A DNA stretch of 64,000 nucleotides, taken from positions 184,356-248,355 of the forward strand of contig JAJFKT010000026.1 of NCBI GenBank assembly GCA_021773075.1, given 5' to 3'. The notes below the pieces were generated by a model. The model worked only from the letters and a program-made list of their open reading frames with translations. It was not told the DNA's origin and searched no databases. The translations under genes were made by a program, and so were the position numbers. This document shows positions 12,543 through 44,333 of this stretch, one piece after another; within the stretch, counting starts at the first letter, position 1, and each line of letters starts with the position of its first letter. The stretch is from Woeseiaceae bacterium. Lineage in GTDB: Bacteria > Pseudomonadota > Gammaproteobacteria > Steroidobacterales > Woeseiaceae.

Positions 12543-12638
12543 CTTATGAGCTATATCAATTTACATCTCGCGACTCCAATGACCTCTGCATCCGCCATGT
12601 ACGGCGATTTGCGAGGTTTCACGCAAAAGGAATTCGTC

Positions 12639-23486: not shown

Positions 23487-26153
23487 TCATAAATACTGGG
23501 TTTCGGTAGCATCCAGAACAACACGAATTCGTTGCGCCAGCTGTGCGGAGGAATAGGGCTTCGGTAATAACGGAATCTTTTGCGCGCTTTCAATTTCTCT
23601 ATCGCTTTCTGGCTCCATCCCGGTAGTAAGCAATACCTTCATGTCCGGCCAGGTATTCATCGCAATATGCGCAAGCTCTCGACCATTGGTCTCACCGGGC
23701 ATGACAATGTCGGCAAACAGAAGGTCTATCTGCTGGTTCTGTTGCAGAATATCCATCGCCGCGGCTGCATCTTCGGCATAAAGAGTTTCATATCCGAGAC
23801 GATTCAGAGTACGGCAAGCGAACTGGCGTACCCTCTTATTGTCTTCCACAACGAGTATGATTTCCTCGCCCGTTGGGAGATCCTCATCTACGACTTCAAT
23901 TTCAAAATCTTCCGTTGTAGCCACACTTGGAAACGATAATTTGATGCAGGTGCCTTTGTCCGGGCCACTATCGATGTGAAGAATACCGCCGCACTGTTGA
24001 ACAAAATCACTGACCATCGTTAATCCAAGTCCGGTACCTGTCTCAACGGTCTTGGTTGTAAAGAATGGCTCAATGGCCCGGCGTCTGGTTTCGTCGTCCA
24101 TTCCGACGCCATCGTCTGTCACAGTCAGTACAATAAAATCGCCGGAACCTAGATCACCATCCCCTTCTGTTTTATTCACCATCTCCTGCAGGGTCGAGAT
24201 TATTATGTTCCCCCCATCTGGCATGGCGTCACGAGCGTTGGTGACCATATTGAGTACCGCGCTTTCCAGACGATTCTTATCAACAAGGATATTGTCGATG
24301 TCATTATCCAGTTCCATTCTTATACTGATCTCCGGAACCGATCGCTGTATGAGTCTCTCCATAGCTACAAGAATGTTGTTGATGTTCATAGAATGAACAT
24401 CAAGTTCCTGACGGCGAGAATAGGCCAGTAATCGCTTGATTAGGTCGGCCCCGTCCTGGGCTGCGGACAGCGCATCATCAAGCAGATCGTTATGATCCTG
24501 GTCTTCATAAACCACATCCAGCTTAAGAAACCGCAGGTTGCCTCGAATGACCGTCAAAAGATTATTGAAATCGTGAGAAATGCCGTCTGTCATGCGGCCA
24601 ATTGCCTCAAGTTTCATGGCCTGGGTCAGCATACTCTCCTTCTTGCGTGCATCCGTAATGTCTTCATTGATCGAGATGTAGCGGGCGATTTGACCTTCCT
24701 GATCTCGGACGGGGCAGATCGTGGAAGACAGCCAGAACGGGTCGCCGTTCTTTGTCCTGTTTTGAAATACCCCTCGCCAAATACCGCCTTTTGAAACAGT
24801 TCCCCAAAGTTCCTTGTAGTTTTCCTTCGAGGTCTGGCCGGAGCTCAAAAAACGGGGGTTCTCACCGATTACCTCATCCTCACGATAACCGGTGATATCG
24901 TAAAAACGGGGGTTAACGTATTCAATGTTTCCTGCAGCATTGGTAATCATTATCGATACCGGGCTTTGTTCAACGGCACTGGAGAGCTGTTGCAGCTCGG
25001 CGTTCATTTTTTCCTCACCGGACAGGTCACGCATGATGCCGGTAAATGAAACGTTCTGCCCTTCTTGCACCTTACTGACAGTGAGGTAAATCGGAACGAA
25101 ATCACCATCCTTACGCCGCGCCTGTACTCTTCGGCCGGTGCCAATGATCGTGGCAATATCTGTTCGCAAATATTCTCTTATATAGTCATCATGCGTTTCA
25201 GCGTCTGGCAAAGACATAAGCATTGATACGTTTTGGCCCAACACCTGATCGGCCGCATAAGCAAAAATTGACTCTGCGGCCAGATTGAATGTCTGGATGA
25301 TTCCCGCTTCATCTATTGTGACAATACCTTCACCCGCGTTATTCAAGATTGATTCCAGGCGTAATTCGCGATCCAGTATTTCTTCTTGTTTGCCAATCAA
25401 ACTCCGGTGCATTACCTCAAGGTCTTCCGTCAGACTCTTGAGTTCGGAAATGGTAGTGTTGACGCGGAATTCGATGGAATGATCGCCAGCGGCAATGCTT
25501 GTAGCCAAACCTCTCAGAGATGAAACAGGCCGGGTAAGAAACCGGCCAAAGAAAATCGCCAGCAATATGCTGAATACGATATAGCAACTCGCTATGAATG
25601 AACCATATTGGTACGCAGTATTAATTTGATCCTGCACTGCTAATTCGTCATAGCCTAATCTCAAAGTACCCAGCGATCTGCCATCCACATCACTGAACAA
25701 TTGCACCGCGATAAAATATATCTGGTCTGCATGCTGACCGAAATCAAAGTCTTCCCTAAAAACTATCGGTTCTTTAGTGCCGTTCGTTTCGGTGCCAATC
25801 GTCGTATCATTGTTGTTAATAAGCTCCGCGAAGATCACGTCACCGCTAAATTGTGTCTCGTAAAAAAATGAGGCCTGTTTCTGTGCGTCCTGATTCTCGG
25901 CCGCAGGCTTAAGTATTTCGGAATACAGCAGAGTATCGTTGCGTACCTGATCGATAAACTGGGATTCAAAACTGCGTTCGACGATAAGCAGGATACCGAA
26001 GAACAGCAGGGGAGTAAGCGGGATATGGATAATGAATACCCCAAGCATCATGCGGCCGGTAATGCTATGCCAGAACCGTTTTAGTTGTTCGAATCTGTCC
26101 ACAATATACCCAGCGATTTTAGTCCGGATTGACGCCCGAGTTGTTCGGACCAC
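23487..26153 (-). CDS. hybrid sensor histidine kinase / response regulator (periplasmic sensor, HAMP, 2 x PAS, HisKA, HATPase, REC)
   Basis: H-box region GRMTDGISHDFNNLLTVIRGN. N-box and G-boxes LNMVTNARDAMPDGG...DDGVGMD...GTGLGLTMV. C-terminal receiver ILVVEDNKRVRQF...DLLFADIVMPGETNG...LPKPY. The ORF start overlaps the upstream gene by 73 nt; the ATG at 26051 (MMLGVFIIH..., first TM) is an alternative start. Confidence 0.9.
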   Translation of the reverse strand: MVRTTRASIRTKIAGYIVDRFEQLKRFWHSITGRMMLGVFIIHIPLTPLLFFGILLIVERSFESQFIDQVRNDTLLYSEILKPAAENQDAQKQASFFYETQFSGDVIFAELINNNDTTIGTETNGTKEPIVFREDFDFGQHADQIYFIAVQLFSDVDGRSLGTLRLGYDELAVQDQINTAYQYGSFIASCYIVFSILLAIFFGRFLTRPVSSLRGLATSIAAGDHSIEFRVNTTISELKSLTEDLEVMHRSLIGKQEEILDRELRLESILNNAGEGIVTIDEAGIIQTFNLAAESIFAYAADQVLGQNVSMLMSLPDAETHDDYIREYLRTDIATIIGTGRRVQARRKDGDFVPIYLTVSKVQEGQNVSFTGIMRDLSGEEKMNAELQQLSSAVEQSPVSIMITNAAGNIEYVNPRFYDITGYREDEVIGENPRFLSSGQTSKENYKELWGTVSKGGIWRGVFQNRTKNGDPFWLSSTICPVRDQEGQIARYISINEDITDARKKESMLTQAMKLEAIGRMTDGISHDFNNLLTVIRGNLRFLKLDVVYEDQDHNDLLDDALSAAQDGADLIKRLLAYSRRQELDVHSMNINNILVAMERLIQRSVPEISIRMELDNDIDNILVDKNRLESAVLNMVTNARDAMPDGGNIIISTLQEMVNKTEGDGDLGSGDFIVLTVTDDGVGMDDETRRRAIEPFFTTKTVETGTGLGLTMVSDFVQQCGGILHIDSGPDKGTCIKLSFPSVATTEDFEIEVVDEDLPTGEEIILVVEDNKRVRQFACRTLNRLGYETLYAEDAAAAMDILQQNQQIDLLFADIVMPGETNGRELAHIAMNTWPDMKVLLTTGMEPESDREIESAQKIPLLPKPYSSAQLAQRIRVVLDATETQYL

Positions 26154-26563
26154 ATATAGGAAACAGATCCCGGGTTATCGAGCAATGCCTTAACCAGCGC
26201 ATCAATGTTTTCATATTCAGGTGGCCGCTGGTCCCCAAGCCGGAAAACACGTGAAAGTAATTGACGTTCATATTCACGTTTGGACATGAAAACAATCTGT
26301 TGCAGAAATACGTCTGTTGCGAATCGATCACTCGTATTCAGTAACGGCCTAAGTCGTACCTGAGCTTTAGTCATTGGTACACCCAGGAATAACTTTCGTA
26401 CCTCTGCATGGGCAAGTGGTTCTATCGTTAAATTGTTGCTACAGACCAGCAGCAAGCTGCGTTGCGTCGTCTCTGCGCTGCTGTTTGTGCAAACCAAACA
26501 CAGACACATCAACAAGACTTTGAGTTTCGCCGCTTTCCTCTGCATCAGAACATTGCATCCCAC
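26081..26563 (-). CDS. hypothetical exported protein, periplasmic-binding-protein-like (short)
   Basis: Signal peptide KLKVLLMCLCLVCTNSSAE. LLLVCSNNLTIEPLAHAEVRKLFLGVPMTKAQVRLRPLLN resembles the start of PstS-like type-2 binding folds. Co-oriented with the downstream kinase gene and abutting it. Confidence 0.5.
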   Translation of the reverse strand: MGCNVLMQRKAAKLKVLLMCLCLVCTNSSAETTQRSLLLVCSNNLTIEPLAHAEVRKLFLGVPMTKAQVRLRPLLNTSDRFATDVFLQQIVFMSKREYERQLLSRVFRLGDQRPPEYENIDALVKALLDNPGSVSYMWSEQLGRQSGLKSLGILWTDSNN

Positions 26564-27612
26564 TGCAGCATGATTTGGCCAAAATTGTCTCCTTGCGTAC
26601 GATTTCCGGAAATTTCGAGTTTAAAGGCATGTCGACCAAACGCATTCAAACGAACCCCACCAAGAAGCCTGTCAGTGATGTGACGCGGAAATAGCGCTAG
26701 ATAGGCGTCATCCTCTTCGCCAAAGGTCCATTCACCGCGGCCGAAAATTGTCCATCGATCGTCCAGGTTGTATTCCGTTTGAAGATAGCCGCTAAAAAAA
26801 TTATCTGTTAGCGTCCCCGCCAACTGTTGCAGGCGATTATCGACGTAGAATGTTGAACCTACCAATCGCCACGGGTGGGATTCCCAGTTCCCATACGCTC
26901 CTGCGTTAATTTGGCGAATTTTTTCAATTTCCTGGTTGGTGGCAGGGATTTCAGTGTAATTGACAAACAGGCCGTATCGCGTCGGACTGTATATTACCGG
27001 TTCAAGATAAAGGTTCAGCGCGAGGCTGAGGTCCTGCGAACCCGATGCCGGCTCCAAAACATCCAGCGGTTCCAGTTTGTCGGCCATTTCAGGTCCAGTG
27101 GCCACTGCCAGCGCATAACCCAACCCCTTCTTGTCGTATTCCTTGATGCCTTCAACGAGTAGTCCCGTTAAATGCATAGGCAGGATTCCGTCGTCGTCTT
27201 CGAAGTCAACAATTGATGGCCGACTGATACTGGTTTCCAAATAGGAGCCATGATGAAACTGAGTATTCCAGTAACCTACAGGGTTATGAAACCGTCCGAA
27301 CCAGACCTTGCCATCGCCAATCGTCCAACCCAATTGAATTCGCTCAATATCCTGTTCATCTTTACTGAGTAGCAATTCACCGAGAAAAAGTAGTTTTCCG
27401 TACTCGGCCGTGGCAAATACACCTACACCATAGTTGTAATCATCATCATCGAGTAACGAGTCAGTTGCCAGATTGGTACGATAAACCGTGCCTATGTGAG
27501 GGAATAGCAGGTAATCGAAAGTAGATTCACTGTGACTGGGCGGCGAATAAATCGCTATTGCAATAACAATCAGGACATAGATCAATCCGCCTCTATTATC
27601 GTTACAGTTCAC
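26545..27612 (-). CDS. putative outer-membrane beta-barrel protein
   Basis: N-terminal signal or anchor LIYVLIVIAIAIYSPPSHSE. Alternating hydrophobic pattern, Gly/aromatic-rich, C-terminal ...IMLQWDAMF (terminal Phe). No named family recognised. Confidence 0.5.
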   Translation of the reverse strand: MNCNDNRGGLIYVLIVIAIAIYSPPSHSESTFDYLLFPHIGTVYRTNLATDSLLDDDDYNYGVGVFATAEYGKLLFLGELLLSKDEQDIERIQLGWTIGDGKVWFGRFHNPVGYWNTQFHHGSYLETSISRPSIVDFEDDDGILPMHLTGLLVEGIKEYDKKGLGYALAVATGPEMADKLEPLDVLEPASGSQDLSLALNLYLEPVIYSPTRYGLFVNYTEIPATNQEIEKIRQINAGAYGNWESHPWRLVGSTFYVDNRLQQLAGTLTDNFFSGYLQTEYNLDDRWTIFGRGEWTFGEEDDAYLALFPRHITDRLLGGVRLNAFGRHAFKLEISGNRTQGDNFGQIMLQWDAMF

Positions 27613-27790: not shown

Positions 27791-28519
27791 ATGACCGAAT
27801 CCGCGAAAATACTAATTGTTGATGATGATGTTCGAATATGCCGAACTCTGAGGTTGTACCTGAAGCGAGAAGGCTATCAGGTCAGTATCGCAACCGATGG
27901 CGAGGAAATGTGGAAGTGTTTCGAGAATGACCTGCCCGATATGATATTGCTCGATATCATGTTGCCCGGCGACGATGGCATAACTCTGGCCCGCGAGCTG
28001 CGAAAAATTTCTGACGTTGGCATCATCATGCTGACTGGAAAAGATGACCCTGTTGATCAGATTATCGGCTTGGAAATCGGTGCCGATGATTACGTGACCA
28101 AGCCGTTTGATGAACGGCAGTTACTCGCCAGGATTCGGAGTCTGCTGCGTCGGCGCGCGATTCCTGTATCGAACACGACGGTTGAAACCGAAGACCAAAA
28201 TAAGAAGATTATTTTTGACGGTTGGGAAATGGATTTATTCACTCATGAACTGGTTTCCCCGGCAGGTCACAGGACGGAACTGACTTCCCATGAATTCAGA
28301 CTCCTTGAGATATTCGTACGAAATCCAGGGGGGGTCTTAAGCCGCGATCAAATTATGCAGAAACTGTACGAACGTGACTGGTCCTTGAATGATAGAAGCG
28401 TAGACGTGCTCATCGGAAAACTGCGCAAGAAAATCGAGGAAGACTCCTCACGACCAAAATTGATTCTGACCATCCGTAATTTTGGCTATAAGTTCGCTGG
28501 TCGAACTTCGAAAAAATGA
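27791..28519 (+). CDS. OmpR/PhoB-family response regulator (receiver plus winged-helix DNA-binding domain)
   Basis: Canonical receiver ILIVDDDVRICRTL...DMILLDIMLPGDDG...IIMLTGKDD...DDYVTKPF. C-terminal trans_reg_C region LTSHEFRLLEIFVRNPGGVLSRDQIM...RSVDVLIGKLRKKIE...ILTIRNFGYKF. Confidence 0.95.
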   Translation: MTESAKILIVDDDVRICRTLRLYLKREGYQVSIATDGEEMWKCFENDLPDMILLDIMLPGDDGITLARELRKISDVGIIMLTGKDDPVDQIIGLEIGADDYVTKPFDERQLLARIRSLLRRRAIPVSNTTVETEDQNKKIIFDGWEMDLFTHELVSPAGHRTELTSHEFRLLEIFVRNPGGVLSRDQIMQKLYERDWSLNDRSVDVLIGKLRKKIEEDSSRPKLILTIRNFGYKFAGRTSKK

Positions 28520-28593: not shown

Positions 28594-28670
28594 TTACATG
28601 TAGTTACAATAAATAATTAATCCTTACGAAATCTTGTTTCTCGGGTTACATAGACTCAGTAAGATTACAT
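28594..28670 (+). promoter_or_regulatory. array of TTACAT-like direct repeats upstream of the trihaem cytochrome genes
   Basis: TTACAT 28594, TTACAA 28604, TTACGA 28624, TTACAT 28646, TTACAT 28665 (spacings 10, 20, 22, 19 nt). They lie in the AT-rich 215-bp gap between the OmpR-type regulator gene and the first cytochrome gene. Confidence 0.45.
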
Positions 28671-30993: not shown

Positions 30994-31734
30994 ATGACAC
31001 TTCGAATCAAATACCTATTGATATTATGCGTGTGTTTATCCGCCGGCCTCTTAATTACGAACACAATAGGCGCAGGCCACGCTGCGCAGACAGATAGCGC
31101 GGTGGGAATACAACAGGACGTGCCGAGCACTATTGATGGGAAGGTATCGAAATCTATTAATGTTCCGGGATATACCTATGTTGAGGTTGATACTGGTGAT
31201 GACAAAATCTGGGCCGCTGTACCCAGCACCTCTGTAACTATTGGCGAGCAGGTGTCGTTTTCAATCGGGATACCGATGCAGAACTTCTACAGCAAGACCC
31301 TGCAACGCAATTTTCCAGTCATTTATTTTGTGGACCATTTTATCACTGACGACGGGGCCACAAGCATGAGTGCGGCCGCCGCGGCGGCACATGGCAGCAT
31401 CAGCCAGGAGCCGGTTGCGGAATTATCCGCAGATATCAGCAAGGTGGAAGGCGGCAATTCGATAGCCGAGGTGCATGCGCAAAAAGACGAACTTAACGGG
31501 GAAACGATACGTGTGCGGGGACAGGTAACCAAGTTCACCGCCGGCGTCCTGGGCAAGAACTGGGTTCATATCAGGGACAGAAGTACCACCAATGATCTGA
31601 CCGTTACCACCGATGCTACAGTTGCAGCCAGCGATGTTGTAATTTTCGAAGGAAAACTCGCACTGGATAAGGACTTTGGTTATGGCTATATTTATTCAGT
31701 CATTCTGGAGGATGCAAGTGTAACGAAGGAATAG
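30994..31734 (+). CDS. hypothetical exported protein with OB-fold-like C-terminal region
   Basis: Signal peptide. GYTYVEVDTGDDKIWAAVPSTSVTIGEQVSF, and later ETIRVRGQVTKFTAGVLGKNWVHIRD. I recall this pattern from proteins annotated as OB-fold in metal-reducing bacteria (from memory, unverified). Confidence 0.45.
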   Translation: MTLRIKYLLILCVCLSAGLLITNTIGAGHAAQTDSAVGIQQDVPSTIDGKVSKSINVPGYTYVEVDTGDDKIWAAVPSTSVTIGEQVSFSIGIPMQNFYSKTLQRNFPVIYFVDHFITDDGATSMSAAAAAAHGSISQEPVAELSADISKVEGGNSIAEVHAQKDELNGETIRVRGQVTKFTAGVLGKNWVHIRDRSTTNDLTVTTDATVAASDVVIFEGKLALDKDFGYGYIYSVILEDASVTKE

Positions 31735-32501: not shown

Positions 32502-32559
32502 TTACATACGTTTACATTTCATTACAAACAAATATCGGCCGCTCATACGGAAATTACAT
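32502..32559 (+). promoter_or_regulatory. second array of TTACAT-like direct repeats, upstream of the tetrahaem cytochrome gene
   Basis: TTACAT 32502, TTACAT 32512, TTACAA 32522 (exact 10-nt phasing) and TTACAT 32554. Same hexamer family as at 28594-28670. Confidence 0.45.
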
Positions 32560-32636: not shown

Positions 32637-33332
32637 ATGAAGACTTTAATCTCAGGCCAAGGGAATCGCATGCTAACGACCCTGTTGTCGGGGTTATTGA
32701 TGGGAATGGGAATCCTGTTCTCAACATCCGCGTTGGCCCAGGACAATACGACGATCGTCGGCTCTCCCCACGATTTTCGAACTCAAGGGTGGGTTAACAA
32801 TGGTAACAACGAAATTTGCGTGGTTTGTCATACACCGCATAACGCAATTTCCCCTCAAGACGGACCGTTGTGGAATCGTTCTTTGACAACCTCGACTTTC
32901 ACGTTGTACACGGCCAATTCTGCAACTCCTGGTAGCGATATTCAGGGCACAGGCTTCAATCAACCGTCGGGTGTATCAAGGCTATGCTTATCCTGCCACG
33001 ACGGGACCATTGCGATCGACGCTTTTGGTGGCTTGACTGGAACGGAAACGATGGATGACATTAACGTCGCCGCAAATCTCGGTGACGTGGTTGGCGGCGT
33101 CGGTGATTTGAGCAACGATCATCCGGTGGCCTTCACTTTTCCGACTACCGATCCTGAAATCGTTCCTAATGTAAACGGCCTGGTCGCGGGTGTGATGCCG
33201 CTATTTGGCGTAGGTCAAGATCAGATGGAGTGCGCTTCCTGCCATGATGTGCATGCTACAAATACATTTGACCAGCTACTCAGGGTTGACAATGACGGTA
33301 GCGCACTCTGCCTGACCTGCCACACAAAATAG
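32637..33332 (+). CDS. tetrahaem c-type cytochrome (stand-alone copy of the N-terminal module of the dodecahaem proteins)
   Basis: ATG 32637 gives the signal MKTLISGQGNRMLTTLLSGLLMGMGILFSTSALA. Motifs CVVCHTPH...PLWNR, CLSCHDGTIA, DHPVAF, CASCHDVH, CLTCH (4 CXXCH). The upstream part of ORF 32409 has no coding character. Confidence 0.85.
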   Translation: MKTLISGQGNRMLTTLLSGLLMGMGILFSTSALAQDNTTIVGSPHDFRTQGWVNNGNNEICVVCHTPHNAISPQDGPLWNRSLTTSTFTLYTANSATPGSDIQGTGFNQPSGVSRLCLSCHDGTIAIDAFGGLTGTETMDDINVAANLGDVVGGVGDLSNDHPVAFTFPTTDPEIVPNVNGLVAGVMPLFGVGQDQMECASCHDVHATNTFDQLLRVDNDGSALCLTCHTK

Positions 33333-33386: not shown

Positions 33387-33420
33387 ACACCCCCTTCCGG
33401 TTGGTTGGGGGTGTATTTTT
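33387..33420 (+). terminator. rho-independent terminator after the tetrahaem gene
   Basis: ACACCCCC (33387-33394) pairs with GGGGGTGT (33407-33414). An inner CC/GG pairing is possible, and ATTTTT follows. Confidence 0.7.
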
Positions 33421-34687: not shown

Positions 34688-36697
34688 ATGCGTGAAATCG
34701 TTCTAACTTGCGTTGCACTGGTGTCGATCCTGTTGCCTGACTTCGCGGCCGCCGAGGACGAACTGGCTATTTTTAGGCTAACGAATGTACAGGCCTATAT
34801 AGAATTGCTATATCGAAAGAACGTGTTTAATAATCGAGCGACAGGGATTGAGACTGCTATTGACGATTACAGACCGCAAATCGAAGTCGGCACGTCCACC
34901 AATAGTTACATCTTTCATCCAAAACTGTTGCAGATAAGTTTGGCCGGGAGTTTGCTGTCCGATCGACAGGATATTAGCCGTCAGCAGTTATCAGTAGCGA
35001 CTAATGGGACAACAGAGTCGATCAGCCGTCAAAAACAAGTCTTACTGAACATCAACACAACGTTGCGGCTCTTGAAGGACAAACACTTTCCAACGACTTT
35101 TTCTTATCTGCGCGAAAATCCGGTTGTGCGAACTGGTCTGGAAGGTAGCTTTACACAGACAACAGAAAGATACGGCGTTGACTTTCAATTGCGAGACGTA
35201 TTACCCGTAAGCCTTTCAATAAACGCGTTCACCGATTCGTTCTTTGGGGAGTCCCTTGACCGGATAGTGGACTTTACCTCCGATCGTGTCACCGTAAAGT
35301 CGAGGAAAACCTTTTCCTCGGGTGACCGGTTTGCACTGAGTTACGAGGTGTCGAATCGAAATTCGCGAAACGGAGATCCCAGGAGAATGATCCAGGAAAC
35401 CCTGCGTCGATCGCGAAATCTGGCATTGACATCTAACTGGCGCCTGGGCAGCGGCGATCAGTTGCATATTGATCAAACCGCCAGCTTTAATCGGCGCGAC
35501 AACCCGGATGTGACAGACATCAATTTTTCACCCAGATTTCGCTGGCTACATTCCTCCACACTCCAGTCCAGGTATCGTTACAGTTTCAACCAGTCCGAAA
35601 GACCGGAGTCCATGATCAAGAACCGAACGGAAAGGTCAAGCGCTGCACTGCACTATTCGCCGACGCCGACAATGAATGGTTTCGTTCGCGCCAACTTCGA
35701 TCAATCGGAGGAAAAAAGTCGACTTCTGCAGAGCGCTTTTGGGCTGACGTCGAGAGGTAGTTTCAAGAAAACCTCGAAGATCGGGCTACTCAATTTGTCC
35801 CTTGGGCTTGGTTATGAACGCAAGGATAGGGAGTCCCTGGTAACGCAGATTAGTGTCATAGAGGAATCCGTCGAACTAGTCGGAACTCTACCGATTTTCC
35901 TGTCGAGGGACTTCGTCATTATTGGTACCGTGACGGTCCGCAATGAAACAGGCACCCAGATCCTTAGCGAGGGTGTCGATTATCGCCTGGTTGAGATCGG
36001 TTCCCGGACGCAGATAGAACGATTGATCGGCGGCGGTATTCTTGATGGAGAAACCGTGTTAGTCGACTACGATGCGCAAACTGGCGGGACCTTCGAGTAC
36101 TCACAGATAAGCCAGACGGCGAACCTCGACTTCAAATTTGCGAAATATCATAATATTTTCCTACGCTACCGCAATAACAGGCAAATACTGGAATCCGGTT
36201 TCTCAACGCTTCCGTTTAATTCGGTGAGGTCTGTGGAAGTCGGTCTGCGAGAACAAGTGCCTCTGCGCTGGATGGGACTCCAGCTTTATGGAGAGGCAAG
36301 GTATCTTCACCAGGATGAAGACATCAACCCGTATGAGCAGAAAAGTGTCCTTGTTTCCGTACAGGCACCGTTGCCGTATCGGCTGAAGTTGAGTTTATCG
36401 GCATCGCGGAACTTTGTGGATAATCTGAATTCCGTTGAGGACACGGACATGACGGTATTCAATGCCAACTTGAACTGGAACCCAAGAAGAAACCTGACGG
36501 TCAGGGCGGAAGGATATTACGATAAAGATACCGGAGGGACAATATTACGTAGCAGGACCAAGGGGAAACTAAGAGCGCAATGGCGATATCGAAAAATCCT
36601 TGTTGCAATGGACGCGACGTATGAAAAACAGCGGCAAGGAATTATCGAGAGTGATAATTACGAGCTTTGGTTGCGAATCAGAAGAGAGCTATTTTGA
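34688..36697 (+). CDS. large putative outer-membrane beta-barrel protein (no recognised family)
   Basis: 669 aa. Signal peptide ...LLPDFAAA-ED. Long run of short alternating amphipathic segments rich in R/N/S/Y/F. C-terminal ...YELWLRIRRELF (terminal Phe, OMP-type signal). No Cys or haem motifs. Confidence 0.6.
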   Translation: MREIVLTCVALVSILLPDFAAAEDELAIFRLTNVQAYIELLYRKNVFNNRATGIETAIDDYRPQIEVGTSTNSYIFHPKLLQISLAGSLLSDRQDISRQQLSVATNGTTESISRQKQVLLNINTTLRLLKDKHFPTTFSYLRENPVVRTGLEGSFTQTTERYGVDFQLRDVLPVSLSINAFTDSFFGESLDRIVDFTSDRVTVKSRKTFSSGDRFALSYEVSNRNSRNGDPRRMIQETLRRSRNLALTSNWRLGSGDQLHIDQTASFNRRDNPDVTDINFSPRFRWLHSSTLQSRYRYSFNQSERPESMIKNRTERSSAALHYSPTPTMNGFVRANFDQSEEKSRLLQSAFGLTSRGSFKKTSKIGLLNLSLGLGYERKDRESLVTQISVIEESVELVGTLPIFLSRDFVIIGTVTVRNETGTQILSEGVDYRLVEIGSRTQIERLIGGGILDGETVLVDYDAQTGGTFEYSQISQTANLDFKFAKYHNIFLRYRNNRQILESGFSTLPFNSVRSVEVGLREQVPLRWMGLQLYGEARYLHQDEDINPYEQKSVLVSVQAPLPYRLKLSLSASRNFVDNLNSVEDTDMTVFNANLNWNPRRNLTVRAEGYYDKDTGGTILRSRTKGKLRAQWRYRKILVAMDATYEKQRQGIIESDNYELWLRIRRELF

Positions 36698-36726
36698 CTG
36701 TAGCAACGAAAGTTTACCGGTATGCC

Positions 36727-37749
36727 ATGCGAGCAGCTATTTGCTTTGTCGTTGTGCTTGCGGCGTGCGTGCCGGTCGTGCACGGGCCGATCTACGAAAT
36801 GGAGATTGCAGAGCCAGTGTGGCCGGCAGCCCCCTCAAGGCCACGATTGGCTTTTGTAATGTCTTTTTCGGGCACGGAAGAACTCGGAATTAGAAAAAAC
36901 TTCTTGCAACAGTTACGGGCGTTGATCGGCGGGGCGCGTCAAGTCCGGTTGGTTCGGCCGGTGGCAGTTGTCGAAAGCTCCGACAAGCAGTTGTTTGTCG
37001 CTGATCCCGGAATGCGTGGCGTACATCGTTTCGACCTAGAGAGAGGCGGGTACCAGTTGATTCAGGGAGAGAACGGTCAACCGTTGTCATCGCCTGTCGC
37101 GCTTGCCGCCGGGTTGAGTGGTGAGGTCTATGTTACGGATTCACGTTTGGCCGCCGTATATGTTATTGAGCCCGGTAAAACCGTCGCCGAAAAAGTACCT
37201 CTTGAGGCCCTATTGGCGCGGCCGACCGGGCTGGCGCTGGACCCCTCAAGTGGGCGACTCTATCTCGTCGATACGGGCAGTCATGAAGTAAAAATATTCG
37301 CTCGCGACGGAGCTTTGCTGAAGCGATTTGGTCGCCGCGGTACAGGAACAGGTGAATTTAATTTTCCGACTATGATCTGGATGAACAATGCTGGTGAAAT
37401 TCTGGTTTCAGATTCCATGAATTTTCGGACACAGGTATTCGATTCTGCCGGAAACTTCCTGCGCCAATTTGGTGAAGCTGGCGATGGCGCAGGACATCAG
37501 GCACAAGGCAAGGGAATAGCGACAGACAGTAAGGGCCATGTGTATATCGTTGATTCGATGATGCACGCAGTTCAGGTTTTCGATCCGTCGGGCAACTTTC
37601 TATTCAAGTTAGGCTTTCGAGGGGAAGGTCCAGGAGAGTTCTGGTTACCGGCCGGCATCTTTGTCGGCGAGAGGGATACGATTTATGTGGCCGATTCCTA
37701 TAACGGCCGAATTCAGGTGTTCCGGTATATTGGTGGTAACTCGCCATGA
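36727..37749 (+). CDS. NHL-repeat beta-propeller lipoprotein 2
   Basis: ATG 36727 gives MRAAICFVVVLAAC (lipobox). NHL units: FNFPTMIWMNNAGEILVSDSMNFRTQVFDSAGNFLRQFG, GKGIATDSKGHVYIVDSMMHAVQVFDPSGNFLFKLG, FWLPAGIFVGERDTIYVADSYNGRIQVF. Its stop overlaps the next start (ATGA 37746-37749). Confidence 0.85.
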   Translation: MRAAICFVVVLAACVPVVHGPIYEMEIAEPVWPAAPSRPRLAFVMSFSGTEELGIRKNFLQQLRALIGGARQVRLVRPVAVVESSDKQLFVADPGMRGVHRFDLERGGYQLIQGENGQPLSSPVALAAGLSGEVYVTDSRLAAVYVIEPGKTVAEKVPLEALLARPTGLALDPSSGRLYLVDTGSHEVKIFARDGALLKRFGRRGTGTGEFNFPTMIWMNNAGEILVSDSMNFRTQVFDSAGNFLRQFGEAGDGAGHQAQGKGIATDSKGHVYIVDSMMHAVQVFDPSGNFLFKLGFRGEGPGEFWLPAGIFVGERDTIYVADSYNGRIQVFRYIGGNSP

Positions 37750-39437
37750 AATATGTAGGTTCGTCCTGTCTGATCTTGTTGGTGCTTTACTTGGCCGGCG
37801 GTATGTCCATGGCACAGCAAACATTCAATATGGAAGACAGCCGGCATGATCTGGCCATAGTCCTGTCGACCGGCTATGAAGGCGAGGTCAATGATGCTCA
37901 GTGTATCTTCTGTCATCCTCCCCGCAGTCAGACGCTAAAGATTGGATTGTGGAATGAGGCGCCAGCGGAGAATCTCTTTGACTACCCCTACGGCAGGCAG
38001 GATGAAAAAGGGACACCGGGCAAACCGGACGGTTCTTCGCTTGTCTGCCTCGGCTGTCATGACGGAACTATTGCTCTGGGCGACATACTCAGTCGTACTC
38101 AGTCGATCAGCAATAGTCGAGACACAAAACGTACTGACTTGTCCGACGGTCACCCTATCTCATTCTCGTATGATTCAACTCTGGTGGACAAGAATGATGA
38201 ACTTGAAAATCCAAAGACGTTAAGGCAACAGGTGAGGCTTGACACAACAGGCAAGATCCAGTGTACGAGTTGCCATGATCCCCATGACGATACCAATGGA
38301 AATTTCCTGGTAATGGACAACAGTTCAACAGCGCTGTGTGTCACGTGCCATAAAAAGGCCGGTTGGGGTACATCTCTGCACAATATTTCATCAGCGACCT
38401 GGAACCGTAGGGGACAGGATCCATGGCCATTCAATAATTTGAGAGGTTCAGTTGTAGAGCACGGTTGTTCTAATTGCCACACGCCCCACGCGGCAGGGAA
38501 TGGCCAATATCTTCTCAATTTCAATGTCGAAGAAGACAATTGCGCGGCATGTCACAATGGCAATGTGGCGGCTACAGATATCAGTGCAGAATTTAACAAA
38601 ATCTCGCATCACCCCATTGAGCAGACGACCGATATTCATGCAACGGATGAAGCGATCATTGTGAATGCGGAGGATCGTCATGTTGAGTGTGTTGATTGTC
38701 ATGACCCTCATTCCGTGAGTACGGCCGATGCGAACGGTACCACTGTCACCTGGAAAAATGTTCGCGGCGTGGATGTTAATGGTGGAGAAAAAACAGAGGC
38801 TATCGCAGAATTTGAATCGTGTTTTCGCTGTCATGGTGACAGCCCGGGAAAGGCCGCCATGCCAACCCCGCGCCTGCACGACCAGAATAACGTTCGGCTT
38901 CAGTTTGATAATGGTAATCCATCATTTCATCCGGTAGTTGGCCCCGGTAACAACTCAAACGTCCCATCTTTGATAGCACCATTGAGCGAAAACAGTACTA
39001 TCGCCTGCAGTGATTGCCACTCCAGTGATAACGACTCGAGTCTCGGTGGGAACGGGCCTGATGGACCGCATGGGTCGATTTACCGGTCTTTGTTGATTCG
39101 GGCCTATCAAACACAGGACCAGACACCTGAGAGTCCCGGCGCTTATTCCTTGTGTTATATGTGTCACGATCGGAACAGCATTCTTGGTGATGAGAGCTTT
39201 GCGCAGCACAGATTACACATCAGCGATAACAACACCCCTTGTAGTGTCTGCCACGACCCGCACGGGATAAGCTCTGTACAGGGGAATACAGTCAACAACT
39301 CACACTTGATTAATTTCGATACATCTGTCGTTTTCCCAAACAGCGGTAATGACCTTCATTTTGAGGATCGTGGAGATCTCAGCGGAGCCTGCTTTTTGGC
39401 ATGCCACAATCTTGAACATGACGGTCTTTCATATTGA
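37746..39437 (+). CDS. dodecahaem c-type cytochrome A (11 CXXCH + 1 CX3CH)
   Basis: Signal peptide. Haem motifs: CIFCH, CLGCH, CTSCH, CVTCH, CSNCH, CAACH, CVDCH, CFRCH, CSDCH, CYMCH, CSVCH, plus C-terminal CFLACH. Conserved DGHPISF and NPSFHPVVGPG blocks. Confidence 0.9.
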   Translation: MKYVGSSCLILLVLYLAGGMSMAQQTFNMEDSRHDLAIVLSTGYEGEVNDAQCIFCHPPRSQTLKIGLWNEAPAENLFDYPYGRQDEKGTPGKPDGSSLVCLGCHDGTIALGDILSRTQSISNSRDTKRTDLSDGHPISFSYDSTLVDKNDELENPKTLRQQVRLDTTGKIQCTSCHDPHDDTNGNFLVMDNSSTALCVTCHKKAGWGTSLHNISSATWNRRGQDPWPFNNLRGSVVEHGCSNCHTPHAAGNGQYLLNFNVEEDNCAACHNGNVAATDISAEFNKISHHPIEQTTDIHATDEAIIVNAEDRHVECVDCHDPHSVSTADANGTTVTWKNVRGVDVNGGEKTEAIAEFESCFRCHGDSPGKAAMPTPRLHDQNNVRLQFDNGNPSFHPVVGPGNNSNVPSLIAPLSENSTIACSDCHSSDNDSSLGGNGPDGPHGSIYRSLLIRAYQTQDQTPESPGAYSLCYMCHDRNSILGDESFAQHRLHISDNNTPCSVCHDPHGISSVQGNTVNNSHLINFDTSVVFPNSGNDLHFEDRGDLSGACFLACHNLEHDGLSY

Positions 39438-40456
39438 GCGAGCGAACCGTGACCAGGTCAATAATAATACTGACGCTTTTGATTGCTGTTGCCTGTACGC
39501 CAGCAAGGCTAAAGGATGCTGATATTTCTGCCTCTGAAGCGCAGGCAGTCTGGCCTGATCCGCCACAGGAGGCCCGGATTCGATATCTGTATTCTTTCAG
39601 CGAACCCACTGATCTGGGAATCAAACCCAGGGCGTTCTCGCGTTTCTTACAGGTGTTTACAGGTAAGGAAAGTCAGCGAATGTTGAGGCCGTATTCTATT
39701 GCTGCCGACGATGACATGATTGTTATTGTCGACCCGGGGCTCAAGGTCGTTCACCTCTATATGACCAAGCGAAAGAAATATGCAGTGATTAGCGATGTTG
39801 ATGGTGAAAGCTTTGTATCACCGGTCGGGATCAGCCTGGGGCATGACGCCATCTACCTCACTGACTCCGCCCTAGGCAAGGTTTTCGTTTTCGATCGGCA
39901 AGGTGAACATAAAAATACGATCACAGGTCTGATGCGTCCTACTGGGATTGTCTTTCATTCTGCCAGTCGGCGCCTTTACGTCACCGATACGCTCGAAAAT
40001 CAGATAGTCGTATTCGACGACAAAGGCGTACAACTGAACGCATTTGGAGCAAGAGGGGGAGCGGTCGGTGAATTCAATTTCCCCTCATTTCTCACCCTGC
40101 ATGGCGATATCCTTTACGTGAATGACACGATGAACTTTCGCATACAAGCGTTCACTCTGGATGGATCTCCTGTTGCTTCCTTTGGCAAATCCGGCGATGG
40201 GTCTGGACAGTTCGCGCTTTCAAAAGGGCTGGGTGCAGATAGGCAGGGGCACCTCTATGTTGCTGATTCCCTGTCAAACTACATTCAAATATTCGATGCG
40301 GAGGGCCGCTTTCTATTGTCCTTTGGTGGCATGGGGGGAAACATAGGACAATTCAGGTTGCCGGTTGGTATTTACATATTGAAAAACAGGATATTCGTCG
40401 CTGATTCCCAGAATCAGCGCGTGCAGGTTTTTGAATATATCGGGGGTGACACCTGA
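39434..40456 (+). CDS. NHL-repeat beta-propeller lipoprotein 3
   Basis: The start is either TTG 39434 (TTGA overlap with the upstream stop) or GTG 39449, giving (M)TRSIIILTLLIAVAC (lipobox). NHL units: FNFPSFLTLHGDILYVNDTMNFRIQAFTLDGSPVASFG, LSKGLGADRQGHLYVADSLSNYIQIFDAEGRFLLSFG, FRLPVGIYILKNRIFVADSQNQRVQVF. Confidence 0.85.
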   Translation: MSERTVTRSIIILTLLIAVACTPARLKDADISASEAQAVWPDPPQEARIRYLYSFSEPTDLGIKPRAFSRFLQVFTGKESQRMLRPYSIAADDDMIVIVDPGLKVVHLYMTKRKKYAVISDVDGESFVSPVGISLGHDAIYLTDSALGKVFVFDRQGEHKNTITGLMRPTGIVFHSASRRLYVTDTLENQIVVFDDKGVQLNAFGARGGAVGEFNFPSFLTLHGDILYVNDTMNFRIQAFTLDGSPVASFGKSGDGSGQFALSKGLGADRQGHLYVADSLSNYIQIFDAEGRFLLSFGGMGGNIGQFRLPVGIYILKNRIFVADSQNQRVQVFEYIGGDT

Positions 40457-42213
40457 TGCGGTGCGCGGCGGTTTTGATTGTTCTCCTGCTGTGCGTCGCG
40501 CCCGTTGGAACGGCGTCGGATATCTCTGCTACAAGGCATAATCTGTCCGTTTCCGGATCGGGGTCAGTGACGAGCGGATCCGTTAATGAGGTCTGCGTCT
40601 TTTGTCATACGCCGCACCATTCTTCACAAAGTGCGCCGTTGTGGAACCGCGAACTTCCCACCGGACAAACCTACCAGTTGTACGGTAGCAGCACTCTCGA
40701 TGCGTCACCTGAAAACCCGCAGCTAAGGTCAGGTAATCATTCCCTGCTTTGTCTTTCATGTCATGACGGCACGATTGCATTGGGGGATTTTATTAACCCA
40801 TCCCAGGAAGATACCGGCTTTGTATTTGGGGCTGGCGACAGGGGCAGGCTGGGTACTGATTTGAGTAACGATCATCCGGTTTCATTTACTTACGACAACA
40901 GTTTGTCACTCAGTGATACGCGTCTGCATCCGCCAGGGATCAATGGTGCGAACATCGCACCTCTGCCGTTGCAGGGCGGGCAATATCTTGAATGTACGAC
41001 TTGTCACGACGTACACGACAACACGCTGCAACCATTTCTTTATGAGCAATCACTGAATGGCGACCTTTGTCTTAAGTGCCATGATTTTGCAACCTGGGAC
41101 TTTGCGGTTTCATCGCATGCCACGCAGACCGGAAACACGCCAGGCTCACCCGGACCCTGGGATAACAGGAGAGCGGAATGGCGCGGTTTCAATGTTGCCG
41201 AGAACAGTTGTTTCAACTGTCACACTCCACACGGTGCTCCATCGCCGGAACGATTGCTCAAGGATGTTGAAGAGAATACCTGTTTGCAATGTCACAACGG
41301 CACCGTTGCCGACACCAATATCGCTGCCGAGTTTAACAAGGCCTCCAGCCATCCAATTGATATGACAACGGACGTTCACGATCCCAGTCCAAGCGTCGAG
41401 TCTGCCATTGTCCAGTCCCGGCATGTGGAATGTGTTGATTGCCATAACCCGCATGCGGTCAGTGGTACTGATATTGGCAATCTGCCTGGACCACTAAACG
41501 GTGTCAGGGGGCTCGACTCGTCTGGCCTCGGCGAAGTAAATCCAATTACCGAGGTGTACCAGCTGTGTTTTCGCTGTCATGCCTACAGTGGCAGTAAACC
41601 GGCACCACCGACGGCACGCGTGCACGAACAGACCAATGTCGCAATGGAGTTTGATACCGGTAATCCATCATTCCATCCGATACTCGGACCAAGCGTTAAT
41701 CCTAACGTACCCAGCCTTATCATTGCGCCGGGTAGTATTATTACGTGTATCGACTGTCACAATAGTAATACATCCAGCACGGCCGGTGGCAGTGGCCCTG
41801 ATGGACCGCATGGTTCCACCTTTCCGACATTGCTCGCTCGTCGATATGTGACGGCAGACAATACTCGCGAGAGTGCTGCTGTATATGCGCTGTGTTTGAA
41901 TTGTCACGACTATGACAGCATTCTTAACGATGATAGCTTCGGTGAACATTCCAGGCATCTTGAGAATGGTGATGTGCCCTGTAATGCTTGCCATGACCCG
42001 CACGGTGTCTCATCGACCCAGGCGACATCCAGTAATGGCTTTCCCAACAATACACATTTGATCAACTTCGACACCGGAATTGTCTCGCCTACGCTGGGCA
42101 ACCCCGCACCATTATTTGAAGACGGTGGTACTTTCCGCGGCACGTGTACTCTCAGCTGTCACGGCGAGCAACATTGTCCGGGTGACAATTGCGATATTGA
42201 TGCCCGTTATTAG
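40456..42213 (+). CDS. dodecahaem c-type cytochrome B (11 CXXCH + 1 CX3CH)
   Basis: The start ATG overlaps the upstream stop by 1 nt (TGATG). Signal MRCAAVLIVLLLCVAPVGTA. Motifs: CVFCH, CLSCH, CTTCH, CLKCH, CFNCH, CLQCH, CVDCH, CFRCH, CIDCH, CLNCH, CNACH, plus CTLSCH. Colinear with 37746..39437. Confidence 0.9.
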   Translation: MRCAAVLIVLLLCVAPVGTASDISATRHNLSVSGSGSVTSGSVNEVCVFCHTPHHSSQSAPLWNRELPTGQTYQLYGSSTLDASPENPQLRSGNHSLLCLSCHDGTIALGDFINPSQEDTGFVFGAGDRGRLGTDLSNDHPVSFTYDNSLSLSDTRLHPPGINGANIAPLPLQGGQYLECTTCHDVHDNTLQPFLYEQSLNGDLCLKCHDFATWDFAVSSHATQTGNTPGSPGPWDNRRAEWRGFNVAENSCFNCHTPHGAPSPERLLKDVEENTCLQCHNGTVADTNIAAEFNKASSHPIDMTTDVHDPSPSVESAIVQSRHVECVDCHNPHAVSGTDIGNLPGPLNGVRGLDSSGLGEVNPITEVYQLCFRCHAYSGSKPAPPTARVHEQTNVAMEFDTGNPSFHPILGPSVNPNVPSLIIAPGSIITCIDCHNSNTSSTAGGSGPDGPHGSTFPTLLARRYVTADNTRESAAVYALCLNCHDYDSILNDDSFGEHSRHLENGDVPCNACHDPHGVSSTQATSSNGFPNNTHLINFDTGIVSPTLGNPAPLFEDGGTFRGTCTLSCHGEQHCPGDNCDIDARY

Positions 42214-42255: not shown

Positions 42256-42804
42256 CTAAAGTTTTGGCGTGGGACGGTCCCTGCCTTCGCCAAATAGGCG
42301 GCCGACGCTCATTCGCATAGCGTCAGTTGCGTCGGCGGTCCGCAGGGCCAGACGAAGGCATGTACCAATTGCGGGTTGCAGCGGCATCGCATCCAAATCC
42401 ATGCCGTCCAACAGGTTCTTCACGTAAAGGCCAAGTTCGGTGTCCCCCGAGGTGCTTAGGTGGCGACGAAAGAACAGCGTGTCTGTGTCCTCGGTGCGCG
42501 TCATTAATTGCAGGAACGCGTAGGCTCTGCCGGATATCTGCAGATCACCGTCCCGGGTTGCGCGTAGAACACGAAGCTTGTTTTCCACCAACGTCAGGCT
42601 GAAGCCAAGATCCACGTCTTCGAAAAAAACCGTCACGACCCGGTCACCGAGAAAGTCGAGATCTCCGCCAGCCAGATGCTCCGCGAACATGAGGTTCAAT
42701 GCATGTTCGGTTGGCAGCCGGGCAAAACGTCTGGGCAACCAACCCAGCGACTTTGCAACGATGAACGGTACGACCGGTGGTTTTGCATTGGCTTCGGTCA
42801 TCAT
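42256..42804 (-). CDS. ubiT: SCP2-domain ubiquinone anaerobic biosynthesis accessory factor UbiT (YhbT-like)
   Basis: 182-aa protein of SCP2 lipid-binding type, in an operon with ubiU/ubiV homologues. ATGA overlap with the ubiD stop. Confidence 0.7.
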   Translation of the reverse strand: MMTEANAKPPVVPFIVAKSLGWLPRRFARLPTEHALNLMFAEHLAGGDLDFLGDRVVTVFFEDVDLGFSLTLVENKLRVLRATRDGDLQISGRAYAFLQLMTRTEDTDTLFFRRHLSTSGDTELGLYVKNLLDGMDLDAMPLQPAIGTCLRLALRTADATDAMRMSVGRLFGEGRDRPTPKL

Positions 42805-44333
42805 TGTATGCCCAGGTCATTCCAAATTTTGTCAACACGTTTCCTGACGTCGTCGCTCATGCGAATCGGCTGTCCCCAATTGCGCTCGGTCTCACCGGGC
42901 CACTTATTGGTCGCGTCCAGGCCCATTTTCGACCCCAGACCGGATGTAGGACTGGCGAAATCAAGGTAATCCACCGGCGTGTTATCGACGATCATCGTGT
43001 CGCGCGCAGGGTCCATGCGCGTACTGATAGCCCACATCACGTCGTCCCAGGAGCGCACGTCGATATCGTCATCGGTAACGATGATGAACTTGGTGTAAGT
43101 AAACTGCCGCAGGCAGGACCAGATTCCCATCATAATTCGGCGGGCGTGTCCCCGGTACTGCTTGTTGATGCTAACGATGGCCACTCGGTAGGAACAAGCT
43201 TCTGGCGGCAGATAGAAGTCGGTAATCTCAGGAAACTGCGCTTGCAGCAAGGGAATGAACAATTCGTTCAGAGATTTTGCGAGCACCGATGGCTCGTCCA
43301 GTGGTGGCTTGCCCATATAGGTCGCCTGGTACACAGGATTCCTGCGATGCGTTATTCGCTCGACCGTGAAAATGGGGAATTTCTCGACGGAATTATAATA
43401 GCCGGTGTGATCGCCAAAAGGCCCCTCATCGCGAACCTGGTCGGGCTCGATGAAGCCTTCGAGCACGATCTCAGCTGTCGCAGGAACGAGTAGATTGTGC
43501 GAAAGACAGCGTGTGACGCGTGTCTTCGAGCCGCGTAATAATCCAGCAAACTGATATTCGGAAATCGTGTCGGGGACCGGCGCGACCGCGGCAAGTGTTG
43601 TCGCCGGATCGCAGCCGATGGCAACGGCCACTGGAAAGCGCTTGCCCGGGTACTTTTTCGCAAAATCGGCGAAATCGATTGCGCCACCGCGATGATGCAA
43701 CCAGCGCATGATCAGCTGATTGCGGCCGACAACCTGCTGCCGGTAAATTCCTACGTTGAGCCGCTCCTTGTTGGGGCCTTGCGTCACGACGAGTCCAAAG
43801 GTGATGAGCCGTGCCGCGTCCTCGGGCCAACATTTCTGAATGGGCAGCATTGCCAAATCGACGTCGTCCTTCTCAATAATGGTCTCTTGGCAAACTGGAT
43901 GAGAATCGTGCAGTGGATTGACGTGTGCAAGATTGCCGAATGTGGCCAGACTTCTGACGGCAGAACCAACGTCATCGGGAATGTGTGGCGTCTGCAAATT
44001 CCTGAGCTGCTCCCCGAATCCGCGTATCGCGGTCAGGTCTTCGAGCCCCAGGGCCGCGGCGACGCGTTGGGGCGTCCCAAAAACGTTGCCAACAATCGGC
44101 ATCAAGTTGCCAACAGGATGTTCGAAACGAAGCGCGGGGCCCTCGTGTCGAATTGAGCGATGACACAGTTCAGTGATCTCGAGTTCCGGACTGACCGGCG
44201 CAGTCACACGCCTCATCCATTGTCGTCCTTCGAGGAACTCCAGGTATTCGCGTAGGCTGTGAAAGATCTGGCGACTGTCCTGCGCCAGCGCGGTGAGTCC
44301 ACGACCGATAATCTGCCGGGTTCTATCGCGCAC
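42801..44333 (-). CDS. ubiD: 4-hydroxy-3-polyprenylbenzoate decarboxylase UbiD
   Basis: Colinear, high-identity match to my recollection of E. coli UbiD. Shared blocks include NLGIYRQQ-type (LNVGIYRQQVVGRNQLIMRWLHHRGGA), PVPDTISEYQFAGLLRG, GPFGDHTGYYN, FLRQFTYTKFIIVTDDDIDVRSWDDVMWAISTRMDPARD and GLGSKMGLDATNKWPGET. Confidence 0.9.
   Translation of the reverse strand: MRDRTRQIIGRGLTALAQDSRQIFHSLREYLEFLEGRQWMRRVTAPVSPELEITELCHRSIRHEGPALRFEHPVGNLMPIVGNVFGTPQRVAAALGLEDLTAIRGFGEQLRNLQTPHIPDDVGSAVRSLATFGNLAHVNPLHDSHPVCQETIIEKDDVDLAMLPIQKCWPEDAARLITFGLVVTQGPNKERLNVGIYRQQVVGRNQLIMRWLHHRGGAIDFADFAKKYPGKRFPVAVAIGCDPATTLAAVAPVPDTISEYQFAGLLRGSKTRVTRCLSHNLLVPATAEIVLEGFIEPDQVRDEGPFGDHTGYYNSVEKFPIFTVERITHRRNPVYQATYMGKPPLDEPSVLAKSLNELFIPLLQAQFPEITDFYLPPEACSYRVAIVSINKQYRGHARRIMMGIWSCLRQFTYTKFIIVTDDDIDVRSWDDVMWAISTRMDPARDTMIVDNTPVDYLDFASPTSGLGSKMGLDATNKWPGETERNWGQPIRMSDDVRKRVDKIWNDLGIQ

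Follow-up and report, generated by a model that had tools for sequence, protein, structure and literature searches.

Does a small tetrahaem cytochrome gene in a member of the Woeseiaceae encode the subunit of an extracellular cytochrome wire? The question is raised by a 64,000-nucleotide (nt) stretch of contig JAJFKT010000026.1 (assembly GCA_021773075.1), which is referred to here in its whole length as the window. Near its middle lies a gene for a 231-amino-acid (aa) protein with four haem-binding motifs, called the tetrahaem below, followed by genes for β-propellers, a large outer-membrane barrel and two larger cytochromes. Structures are available for only two bacterial OmcE filaments, and both come from Desulfuromonadia; the relevance of such wires outside Geobacter-like metal reducers is disputed. 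An earlier note on this DNA had pointed out a likeness to OmcE in size and haem count, with no homology claimed. The likeness turns out to be real homology. That is, both solved OmcE filaments are the sole significant matches in the PDB, the eight ligand positions are kept, and the gene order is that of the published omcE cluster. We propose, with a probability of roughly 0.6, that the tetrahaem is an OmcE-family subunit that is exported, loaded with haem, passed to a barrel and propeller machinery, polymerised outside the cell, wired to the periplasm by 12-haem and c7-type cytochromes, and made in excess.

The tetrahaem gene has a strong Shine-Dalgarno sequence, AAGGGGA, 7 nt 5′ of the start codon. 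Its product opens with a Sec signal peptide, the cleavage of which probably occurs at ALA/QD, after residue 34. The protein contains exactly four CXXCH motifs, starting at C61, C117, C199 and C225, and a total of eight Cys and eight His. The four His residues outside the CXXCH motifs are His45, His68, His162 and His206. All of the motif blocks that the earlier note had quoted for a 231-aa, four-haem product are present, in the order given.

When the whole PDB was searched by sequence with phmmer, only two chains reached E < 0.01. The first is 7tfs_A, the OmcE filament of Geobacter sulfurreducens, with E = 5.6e-22 over query residues 54–231. The second is 9yuq_N, with E = 6.1e-22 over query residues 38–231; this 218-aa chain is labelled 'putative multihaem cytochrome c', in an entry of 16 chains. 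We take 9yuq to be the OmcE nanowire DSOUD_2954 of Desulfuromonas soudanensis WTL, because the loop numbering D68–T72, T128–A131, N134–A137 and S175–A177 in the description of that nanowire (10.1101/2025.10.22.684050) fits the 9yuq sequence exactly. In a five-way alignment, the tetrahaem is 41% identical to OmcE and 39% identical to DSOUD_2954, and the two filament proteins are 44% identical to each other, a value given as 41% in the published account (10.1101/2025.10.22.684050).

The four CXXCH motifs and His45, His68, His162 and His206 are aligned in all three proteins and do not vary among 58 homologues, both close and distant. In 90 stand-alone homologues from other genomes, these eight positions are near-invariant, with His68 found in 83 of the 90. 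The C-terminus lies two residues past the last CXXCH in the tetrahaem, OmcE and DSOUD_2954, and likewise in 86 of the 90 stand-alone homologues. The conserved core of OmcE homologues has been described as four CXXCH motifs plus four His residues (10.1101/2025.10.22.684050), and reviews point out that, in OmcE and OmcS, one interfacial haem takes a His ligand from the adjacent subunit. OmcE-type wires are extracellular filaments of micrometre length, the haem packing of which alternates between stacked and T-shaped. On the strength of its sequence, we assign the tetrahaem to the OmcE family as a predicted Sec-exported, bis-His-ligated tetrahaem c-type cytochrome.

A quite different reading, the one that the earlier note named as its refuting case, is that the protein is an ordinary periplasmic shuttle of the c3, NrfB or c7 type, unrelated to nanowires. 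Weak family matches point in that direction. In Pfam, Cytochrome_C7 scores 25.6 bits (cut-off 24.8; no individually significant stretch), Cytochrom_c3_2 22.2 bits (cut-off 25) and the NrfB-like family 17.4 bits (cut-off 27), and NCBIfam NrfB models score 16–17 bits against cut-offs of 166–184. These matches are confined to residues ~191–231, which make up a generic doubled-CXXCH motif, and all but the marginal Cytochrome_C7 fall below their cut-offs. The generic doubled-CXXCH domain is the only one above a curated cut-off in Pfam and NCBIfam, neither of which returned an OmcE-type family for the protein. In the PDB search, no c3, c7 or NrfB structure reached E < 0.01, whereas the OmcE filaments match almost the full length of the mature protein, at E ~1e-22. 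An unrelated shuttle is thus very improbable.

The second line of evidence is the company that the gene keeps. The tetrahaem gene heads a tightly packed row, the members of which overlap or almost touch from the third gene on (Table 1). The minimal omcE cluster is reported to consist of the OmcE subunit, a large β-barrel, two multihaem cytochromes and two β-propeller lipoproteins (10.1101/2025.10.22.684050). Judged by its predicted products, the row fits that composition plus one propeller gene, so that the tetrahaem gene opens a cassette of the omcE type. What is extra with respect to the core cassette is a second pair of propeller and 12-haem genes (39434..42213). For propeller 2, the open reading frame (ORF) opens at a TTG at position 36667, and an ATG at 36727 is the more likely start.

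The 669-aa product has no Pfam match. Its AlphaFold2 model is all-β, with a mean predicted local distance difference test (pLDDT) score of 90.6. Compared with PDB folds, the model best matches MtrB (6r2q_B, E = 1.1e-8, template modelling (TM) score 0.33); the next matches are TonB-dependent receptors, pilus ushers and LptD. Since the TM scores are only ~0.3, 'large outer-membrane barrel' is the safe reading. The barrel of the omcE cluster has been proposed to be a secretion pore or an anchor (10.1101/2025.10.22.684050). Residues ~387–465 of the model form a small inserted β domain, for which NCBIfam gives a faint match, to a phage tail tube protein, that stays below threshold (20 bits where the cut-off is 60; E = 3.8e-4). 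In the model, this domain may be a plug or a periplasmic or extracellular docking domain.

The match to MtrB brings to mind the MtrCAB and Pcc conduits. The 12-haem proteins score 55–57 bits on TIGR03508, the DmsE/MtrA decahaem family, far below the cut-off of 192, and one of them weakly matches 6r2q chain A of the Mtr complex (E = 1e-3), which we take to be MtrA. Mtr and Pcc systems are without NHL propellers and an OmcE-type subunit, whereas the cassette has both, and we do not claim membership in either.

Is the arrangement conserved? A scan of one genome per species found 582 relatives, the best match being 46% identical; the best 80 loci (L003–L082) were taken for comparison. Of these, 41 have the four cassette parts side by side in one locus, under at least 10 phylum-level labels, and many of the other loci lie on truncated contigs. 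The order tetrahaem, propeller, barrel, propeller, 11-CXXCH cytochrome is seen in Geobacter, Desulfocapsa, Desulfobulbaceae, Woeseiaceae, Thioalkalispiraceae, Ignavibacterium, Melioribacteraceae, Calditrichota, Bacteroidota, Opitutae, Nitrospiraceae and Planctomycetota metagenome-assembled genomes. Full cassettes also carry the labels Ignavibacteriota, Verrucomicrobiota and Nitrospirota, besides Bacteroidota, Planctomycetota, Calditrichota and others, a range wider than the five phyla named in 10.1101/2025.10.22.684050. Closer at hand, a relative with 89% identity (L001, NCBI assembly GCA_021773095.1) is syntenic.

Table 1. Genes and sequence signals of the tetrahaem cassette and its surroundings, in window coordinates.
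Feature	Positions	Strand	Basis and remarks
Hybrid sensor histidine kinase with PAS domains	23487..26153	-	Domain search; syntenic with the cluster in L001
OmpR/PhoB-type response regulator	27791..28519	+	Pfam Response_reg E=9e-30, Trans_reg_C E=1.4e-24
Further TTACAW-N4-TTACAW copy	28594..28609	+	Pattern scan; promoter region of the trihaem-cytochrome operon
Three consecutive secreted trihaem c7-type cytochromes, 120, 199 and 191 aa	28735..30310	+	NCBIfam TIGR04257 (c7-type 'nanowire_3heme') 61-70 bits, cut-off 40; syntenic in L001
Three direct repeats, TTACAT-N4-TTACAT-N4-TTACAA, 10-base-pair period	32502..32527	+	~110 nt 5′ of the tetrahaem start; candidate regulator-binding site
OmcE-family tetrahaem c-type cytochrome gene, 231 aa	32637..33332	+	Open ORF, motif count, PDB phmmer
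Terminator-like hairpin (ACACCCCC...GGGGGTGT) and T-run	33387..33420	+	Consensus scan and folding; lies in the 160 nt that separate the tetrahaem and propeller 1 genes
NHL-repeat β-propeller protein 1, 377 aa	33493..34626	+	Pfam NHL E=1.8e-16; signal peptide; directly after the tetrahaem gene in other phyla too
Large outer-membrane β-barrel, 669 aa	34688..36697	+	Signal peptide, C-terminal Phe, AlphaFold2 model and fold match
NHL β-propeller lipoprotein 2	36667..37749	+	Pfam NHL E=4.6e-29; lipobox VLAAC
12-haem cytochrome 1, 563 aa	37746..39437	+	OmcE-like four-haem N-terminal module, then seven CXXCH and one CX3CH
NHL β-propeller lipoprotein 3	39434..40456	+	Pfam NHL E=4.1e-17; lipobox IAVAC
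12-haem cytochrome 2, 585 aa	40456..42213	+	OmcE-like N-terminal module that keeps all eight ligand residues, followed by an eight-haem extension

The two large cytochromes are related to the subunit itself. The earlier note had claimed that the same ordered blocks open both of them, and BLASTP bears this out, with similarity far above chance: over 181 aa, the tetrahaem shares 41% identity with the N-terminus of the 585-aa protein (E = 2e-28), and over 223 aa it shares 30% with the 563-aa protein (E = 9e-18). A PDB search with the 585-aa protein found 7tfs_A with E = 7.8e-40 over residues 5–209. Compared along their whole length, the large cytochromes have 42% identity with one another. They had been called dodecahaem proteins. 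Twelve sites is a reasonable count, but only 11 are CXXCH motifs; the twelfth is a C-terminal CX3CH (CFLACH in one protein, CTLSCH in the other). The CxLxCH form of this motif is kept in 54 of 57 large homologues, which makes a twelfth haem plausible.

The module is widespread. It opens 52 of the 57 large cytochromes, with its ligand residues conserved. In a neighbour-joining tree, the fused modules form a clade of their own (53/57), apart from the stand-alone proteins, among which OmcE and DSOUD_2954 are placed. A recent local duplication of the tetrahaem module was considered and rejected on account of this separate clade. It follows that the split between fused and stand-alone forms is old, and that the sharing of the module is an ancient conserved feature of the cassette. 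The 563-aa protein departs from the pattern near residue 60, where an Arg (CIFCHPPR) replaces the equivalent of His68; a distal His occupies this place (CxxCHTPH) in the tetrahaem, in the 585-aa protein and in the two solved OmcEs. As a general mark of a 'cap' subunit, the missing His was rejected, since it is absent in only 3 of the 57 large homologues; the Arg is therefore a lineage-specific oddity. One haem of the 563-aa cytochrome may, to go by this substitution, have a different or external axial ligand. We found no description of an OmcE-like module in the partner cytochromes GSU0615–0617 in the literature searched, which is not proof of novelty.

What might the module do? How such wires are mounted has been described as an open question (10.1101/2025.10.22.684050). 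A speculative model, which we regard as rather unlikely as it stands, makes the 12-haem cytochromes the built-in base, or primer, of the wire. The N-terminal module would act as a subunit mimic and join the proximal end of the polymer by His–haem cross-ligation, and the other eight haems would lead, inside or beside the MtrB-like 669-aa barrel, to the c7-type cytochromes of the periplasm. If true, a role at the wire base would explain both the anchoring and the electrical connection to the cell of an 'insulated' nanowire, across at least 10 phylum-level labels.

The signals around the tetrahaem gene are analyzed next. The TTACAT repeats reported upstream in the earlier note are real: there are three units, kept in L001 and in a further locus, L002. 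The pattern TTACAW-N4-TTACAW has three matches in the window against 0 expected, and all of them lie in the promoter regions of the c7 operon and the tetrahaem gene; the copy ahead of the c7 operon is conserved in L001. We infer that the repeats are a candidate operator of the adjacent OmpR-type response regulator. A scan for sigma-70 consensus promoters gave nothing on the plus strand upstream of the tetrahaem gene; its sole hit is on the minus strand, for a divergent Sel1 gene. The lack of a sigma-70 consensus fits an activator-dependent promoter.

Downstream of the tetrahaem gene, the stem of the hairpin is conserved in L001 (L001 10693–10859). Among 58 loci from many phyla, 34 (e.g., L055, L006, L016 and L074) have a hairpin and T-run after the stand-alone tetrahaem gene. 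After the later cassette genes, terminator-like hairpins are scarce: 3 of 62 loci for propeller 1, 0 of 7 for the barrel and 2 of 50 for propeller 2. The omcE gene of G. sulfurreducens is predicted to be monocistronic, next to the multihaem cytochrome genes gsu0615–0617 (PMC1829397). By analogy, the layout of subunit, terminator and assembly genes would be that of the major-subunit genes of other surface polymers, and it agrees with the predicted monocistronic omcE.

Several results weigh against the proposal that the tetrahaem is a wire subunit, or limit it, as follows. Its AlphaFold2 model, built without haems, is poor (pLDDT 49.3, predicted TM score 0.29), and Foldseek found no match to it in the PDB. 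G. sulfurreducens OmcE scores 138 bits against the N-terminal module of the 585-aa cytochrome and 80 bits against the stand-alone tetrahaem. OmcE being nearer to the fused module by raw score, sequence alone cannot pick the tetrahaem as 'the' OmcE orthologue. The OmcE family is a continuum, in which strict orthology of the tetrahaem to OmcE is not established. The family is also very large, with 4646 database matches at E ≤ 1e-3. The authors of the D. soudanensis structure consider OmcE-like tetrahaems to be widespread and only some of them to be possible wire formers (10.1101/2025.10.22.684050), and even for Geobacter there is dispute about what OmcE filaments do physiologically (PMC11077965). 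In the cassette, the lipobox scan found no canonical lipobox in propeller 1. Finally, the folding energy of the hairpin, -20.9 kcal/mol, is not exceptional against shuffles (z = -1.84). The terminator that the earlier note gave to the gene thus stands as a real sequence feature, with its equivalents in other loci, while its fold energy alone is unremarkable; the frequency of hairpins across loci is the more telling of the two measures.

The main alternative reading is that the tetrahaem is a carrier of the OmcE family that does not polymerise. As a monomer or small oligomer at the surface or in the periplasm, it would dock on the conduit of barrel and 12-haem proteins, where it would either act as a terminal oxidoreductase on minerals or on soluble shuttles, or ferry electrons from the c7-type cytochromes to the conduit and back. 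In its favour, the family is very large and spans many taxa, and only two of its members are known to polymerise. The loops that bundle filaments are not conserved among homologues (10.1101/2025.10.22.684050), and the tetrahaem sequence is without a known polymerisation signature. Such a carrier, however, would be at odds with four observations. All four extra His residues are invariant, the inter-subunit one included; the architecture is the same as that of both filament formers; the layout of subunit, terminator and assembly genes, typical of polymer subunits, is conserved; and a large barrel is conserved beside the subunit gene. We consider a non-polymerising carrier unlikely, and an alternative to be taken seriously.

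Returning to the wire subunit, we suggest the following course of events. The tetrahaem would be exported by Sec and its haems attached in the periplasm. It would then be handed to, or through, the 669-aa barrel of the outer membrane, with the NHL β-propeller proteins and lipoproteins helping. Polymerisation would be head-to-tail and outside the cell, with one of the four non-CXXCH His residues ligating a haem of the neighbouring subunit, as in both solved OmcE filaments, so that a continuous, insulated haem chain results. Electrons would enter or leave the chain by way of both 12-haem cytochromes and the three trihaem c7-type cytochromes of the periplasm. The subunit gene would be read from its own activator-dependent promoter, with TTACAW repeats in common with the c7 operon, to which the neighbouring OmpR-type regulator probably binds. 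A terminator or attenuator after the gene would leave the subunit in excess over the assembly proteins, as is the case for the major subunits of other surface filaments.

How does this system compare with those already described? OmcE (GSU0618, PDB 7TFS) is, like the tetrahaem, a protein of ~230 aa with a Sec signal peptide, the same order of four CXXCH motifs and four distal His residues; loop lengths and sequences differ. The hosts differ as well, the present one probably being a gammaproteobacterium and that of OmcE a member of the Desulfuromonadia. Geobacter-type omcE clusters are followed by a glycosyltransferase block (10.1101/2025.10.22.684050). None is seen next to the cassette; the nearest family-2 glycosyltransferase gene in the window lies ~12 kilobases upstream (18365..20137).

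DSOUD_2954 forms bundled antiparallel nanowires (PDB 9YUQ, 10.1101/2025.10.22.684050). It has the same eight ligand positions, and its cluster is of the same minimal type, without an adjacent glycosylation block. The four loops by which 9yuq was recognised form the bundle interface, and they are not conserved in the tetrahaem; the paper says the same of homologues generally. In contrast to the two propeller genes of that cluster, the window has three, in addition to a two-component system and the trihaem c7-type cytochromes.

A more distant parallel is OmcS of G. sulfurreducens. There, the omcS-companion (osc) cluster (Shen et al. 2025, cited in PMC13194489) places the filament cytochrome beside paralogous cytochromes and proposed folding or secretion proteins, with a large barrel in the region. 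The logic is that of the tetrahaem cassette, and in OmcS, as in OmcE, the interfacial haem has a His from the neighbouring subunit. The proteins themselves are unlike each other: OmcS is a hexahaem protein of ~407 aa, whereas the tetrahaem has four haem motifs, and the PDB search with the tetrahaem returned no OmcS chain at E ≤ 10.

The wider surroundings bear on regulation and physiology. The trihaem c7-type cytochromes upstream are probably periplasmic electron carriers of the same regulon. In loci of Thiodiazotropha, Gemmatimonadota and Rhodospirillales (L058, L071, L077 and L070), trihaem genes like these are part of the cassette itself. Between them and the tetrahaem gene is a gene for a 246-aa secreted protein (30994..31734) with a weak TOBE/OB-fold match, which recurs beside the cassette in unrelated phyla (L009, L016, L026, L033, L037, L041, L056, L058 and L071; 67–152 bits); from this recurrence, we regard it as a predicted, so far unrecognised accessory component of the cassette.

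Upstream, and syntenic in L001, are two secreted proteins of unassigned function and the divergent Sel1-repeat gene. A 355-aa protein (26545..27612, minus strand), also syntenic in L001, has no Pfam match, and its gene is in an apparent operon with those for a 160-aa protein and the hybrid histidine kinase. Its C-terminus, ...QWDAMF, ends in Phe, which suggests that it may be an outer-membrane protein. Farther away are two proteins of ~500 aa, each made of 4–5 DUF5666 repeats (12546..14084 and 15440..16903; E = 1e-62 and 6e-55), near genes for TPR and family-2 glycosyltransferase proteins.

Downstream of the cassette, genes for an SCP2 (UbiT-like) protein, UbiD and two peptidase-U32 (UbiU/UbiV-like) proteins lie together (42256..46292, minus strand). 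A set of the ubiT, ubiD, ubiU and ubiV type is the signature of the oxygen-independent ubiquinone pathway. The genes suggest a facultative anaerobe that uses ubiquinone.

These neighbours raise the question of which way electrons flow. In the probable gammaproteobacterial host, OmcE-type wire and conduit might work in reverse and take up electrons from extracellular donors such as Fe(II), reduced minerals, partner cells or cathodes. Ranked by barrel score, the nearest cassettes belong to Woeseiaceae, Thioalkalispiraceae and unclassified Gammaproteobacteria, and Thiodiazotropha genomes also have the cassette. The gammaproteobacterial placement of the host is drawn from the taxa of the loci with top barrel scores and from one named match at 59% identity. 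Woeseiaceae, Thioalkalispiraceae and Thiodiazotropha-type lineages are largely sulfur-oxidising or facultatively anaerobic organisms of sediment. The ubi-like genes at the flank suggest a ubiquinone-based, low-oxygen respiration, and chains of bis-His multihaem proteins are reversible in principle. Against electron uptake, no donor-specific genes are present within the cluster, and the experimental precedent for OmcE all concerns electron export. We hold uptake as the physiological direction to be doubtful.

What, then, does the locus add? Pseudomonadota are already reported to have OmcE homologues encoded close to a porin (10.1101/2025.10.22.684050), so the tetrahaem gene adds a member to a known family. 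Beyond the papers searched, comparison of the loci points to three things: the OmcE-like module that is kept at the N-terminus of the partner cytochromes, the terminator that is conserved downstream of the subunit gene, and the presence of the full cassette in many more phyla than the five named before. To summarize, the locus holds an OmcE-type cassette that is complete, compact and, it appears, regulated, in a probable sediment gammaproteobacterium, and the subunit-like N-terminal module of the partner cytochromes offers a testable hypothesis for how such wires may be anchored and connected to the periplasm.

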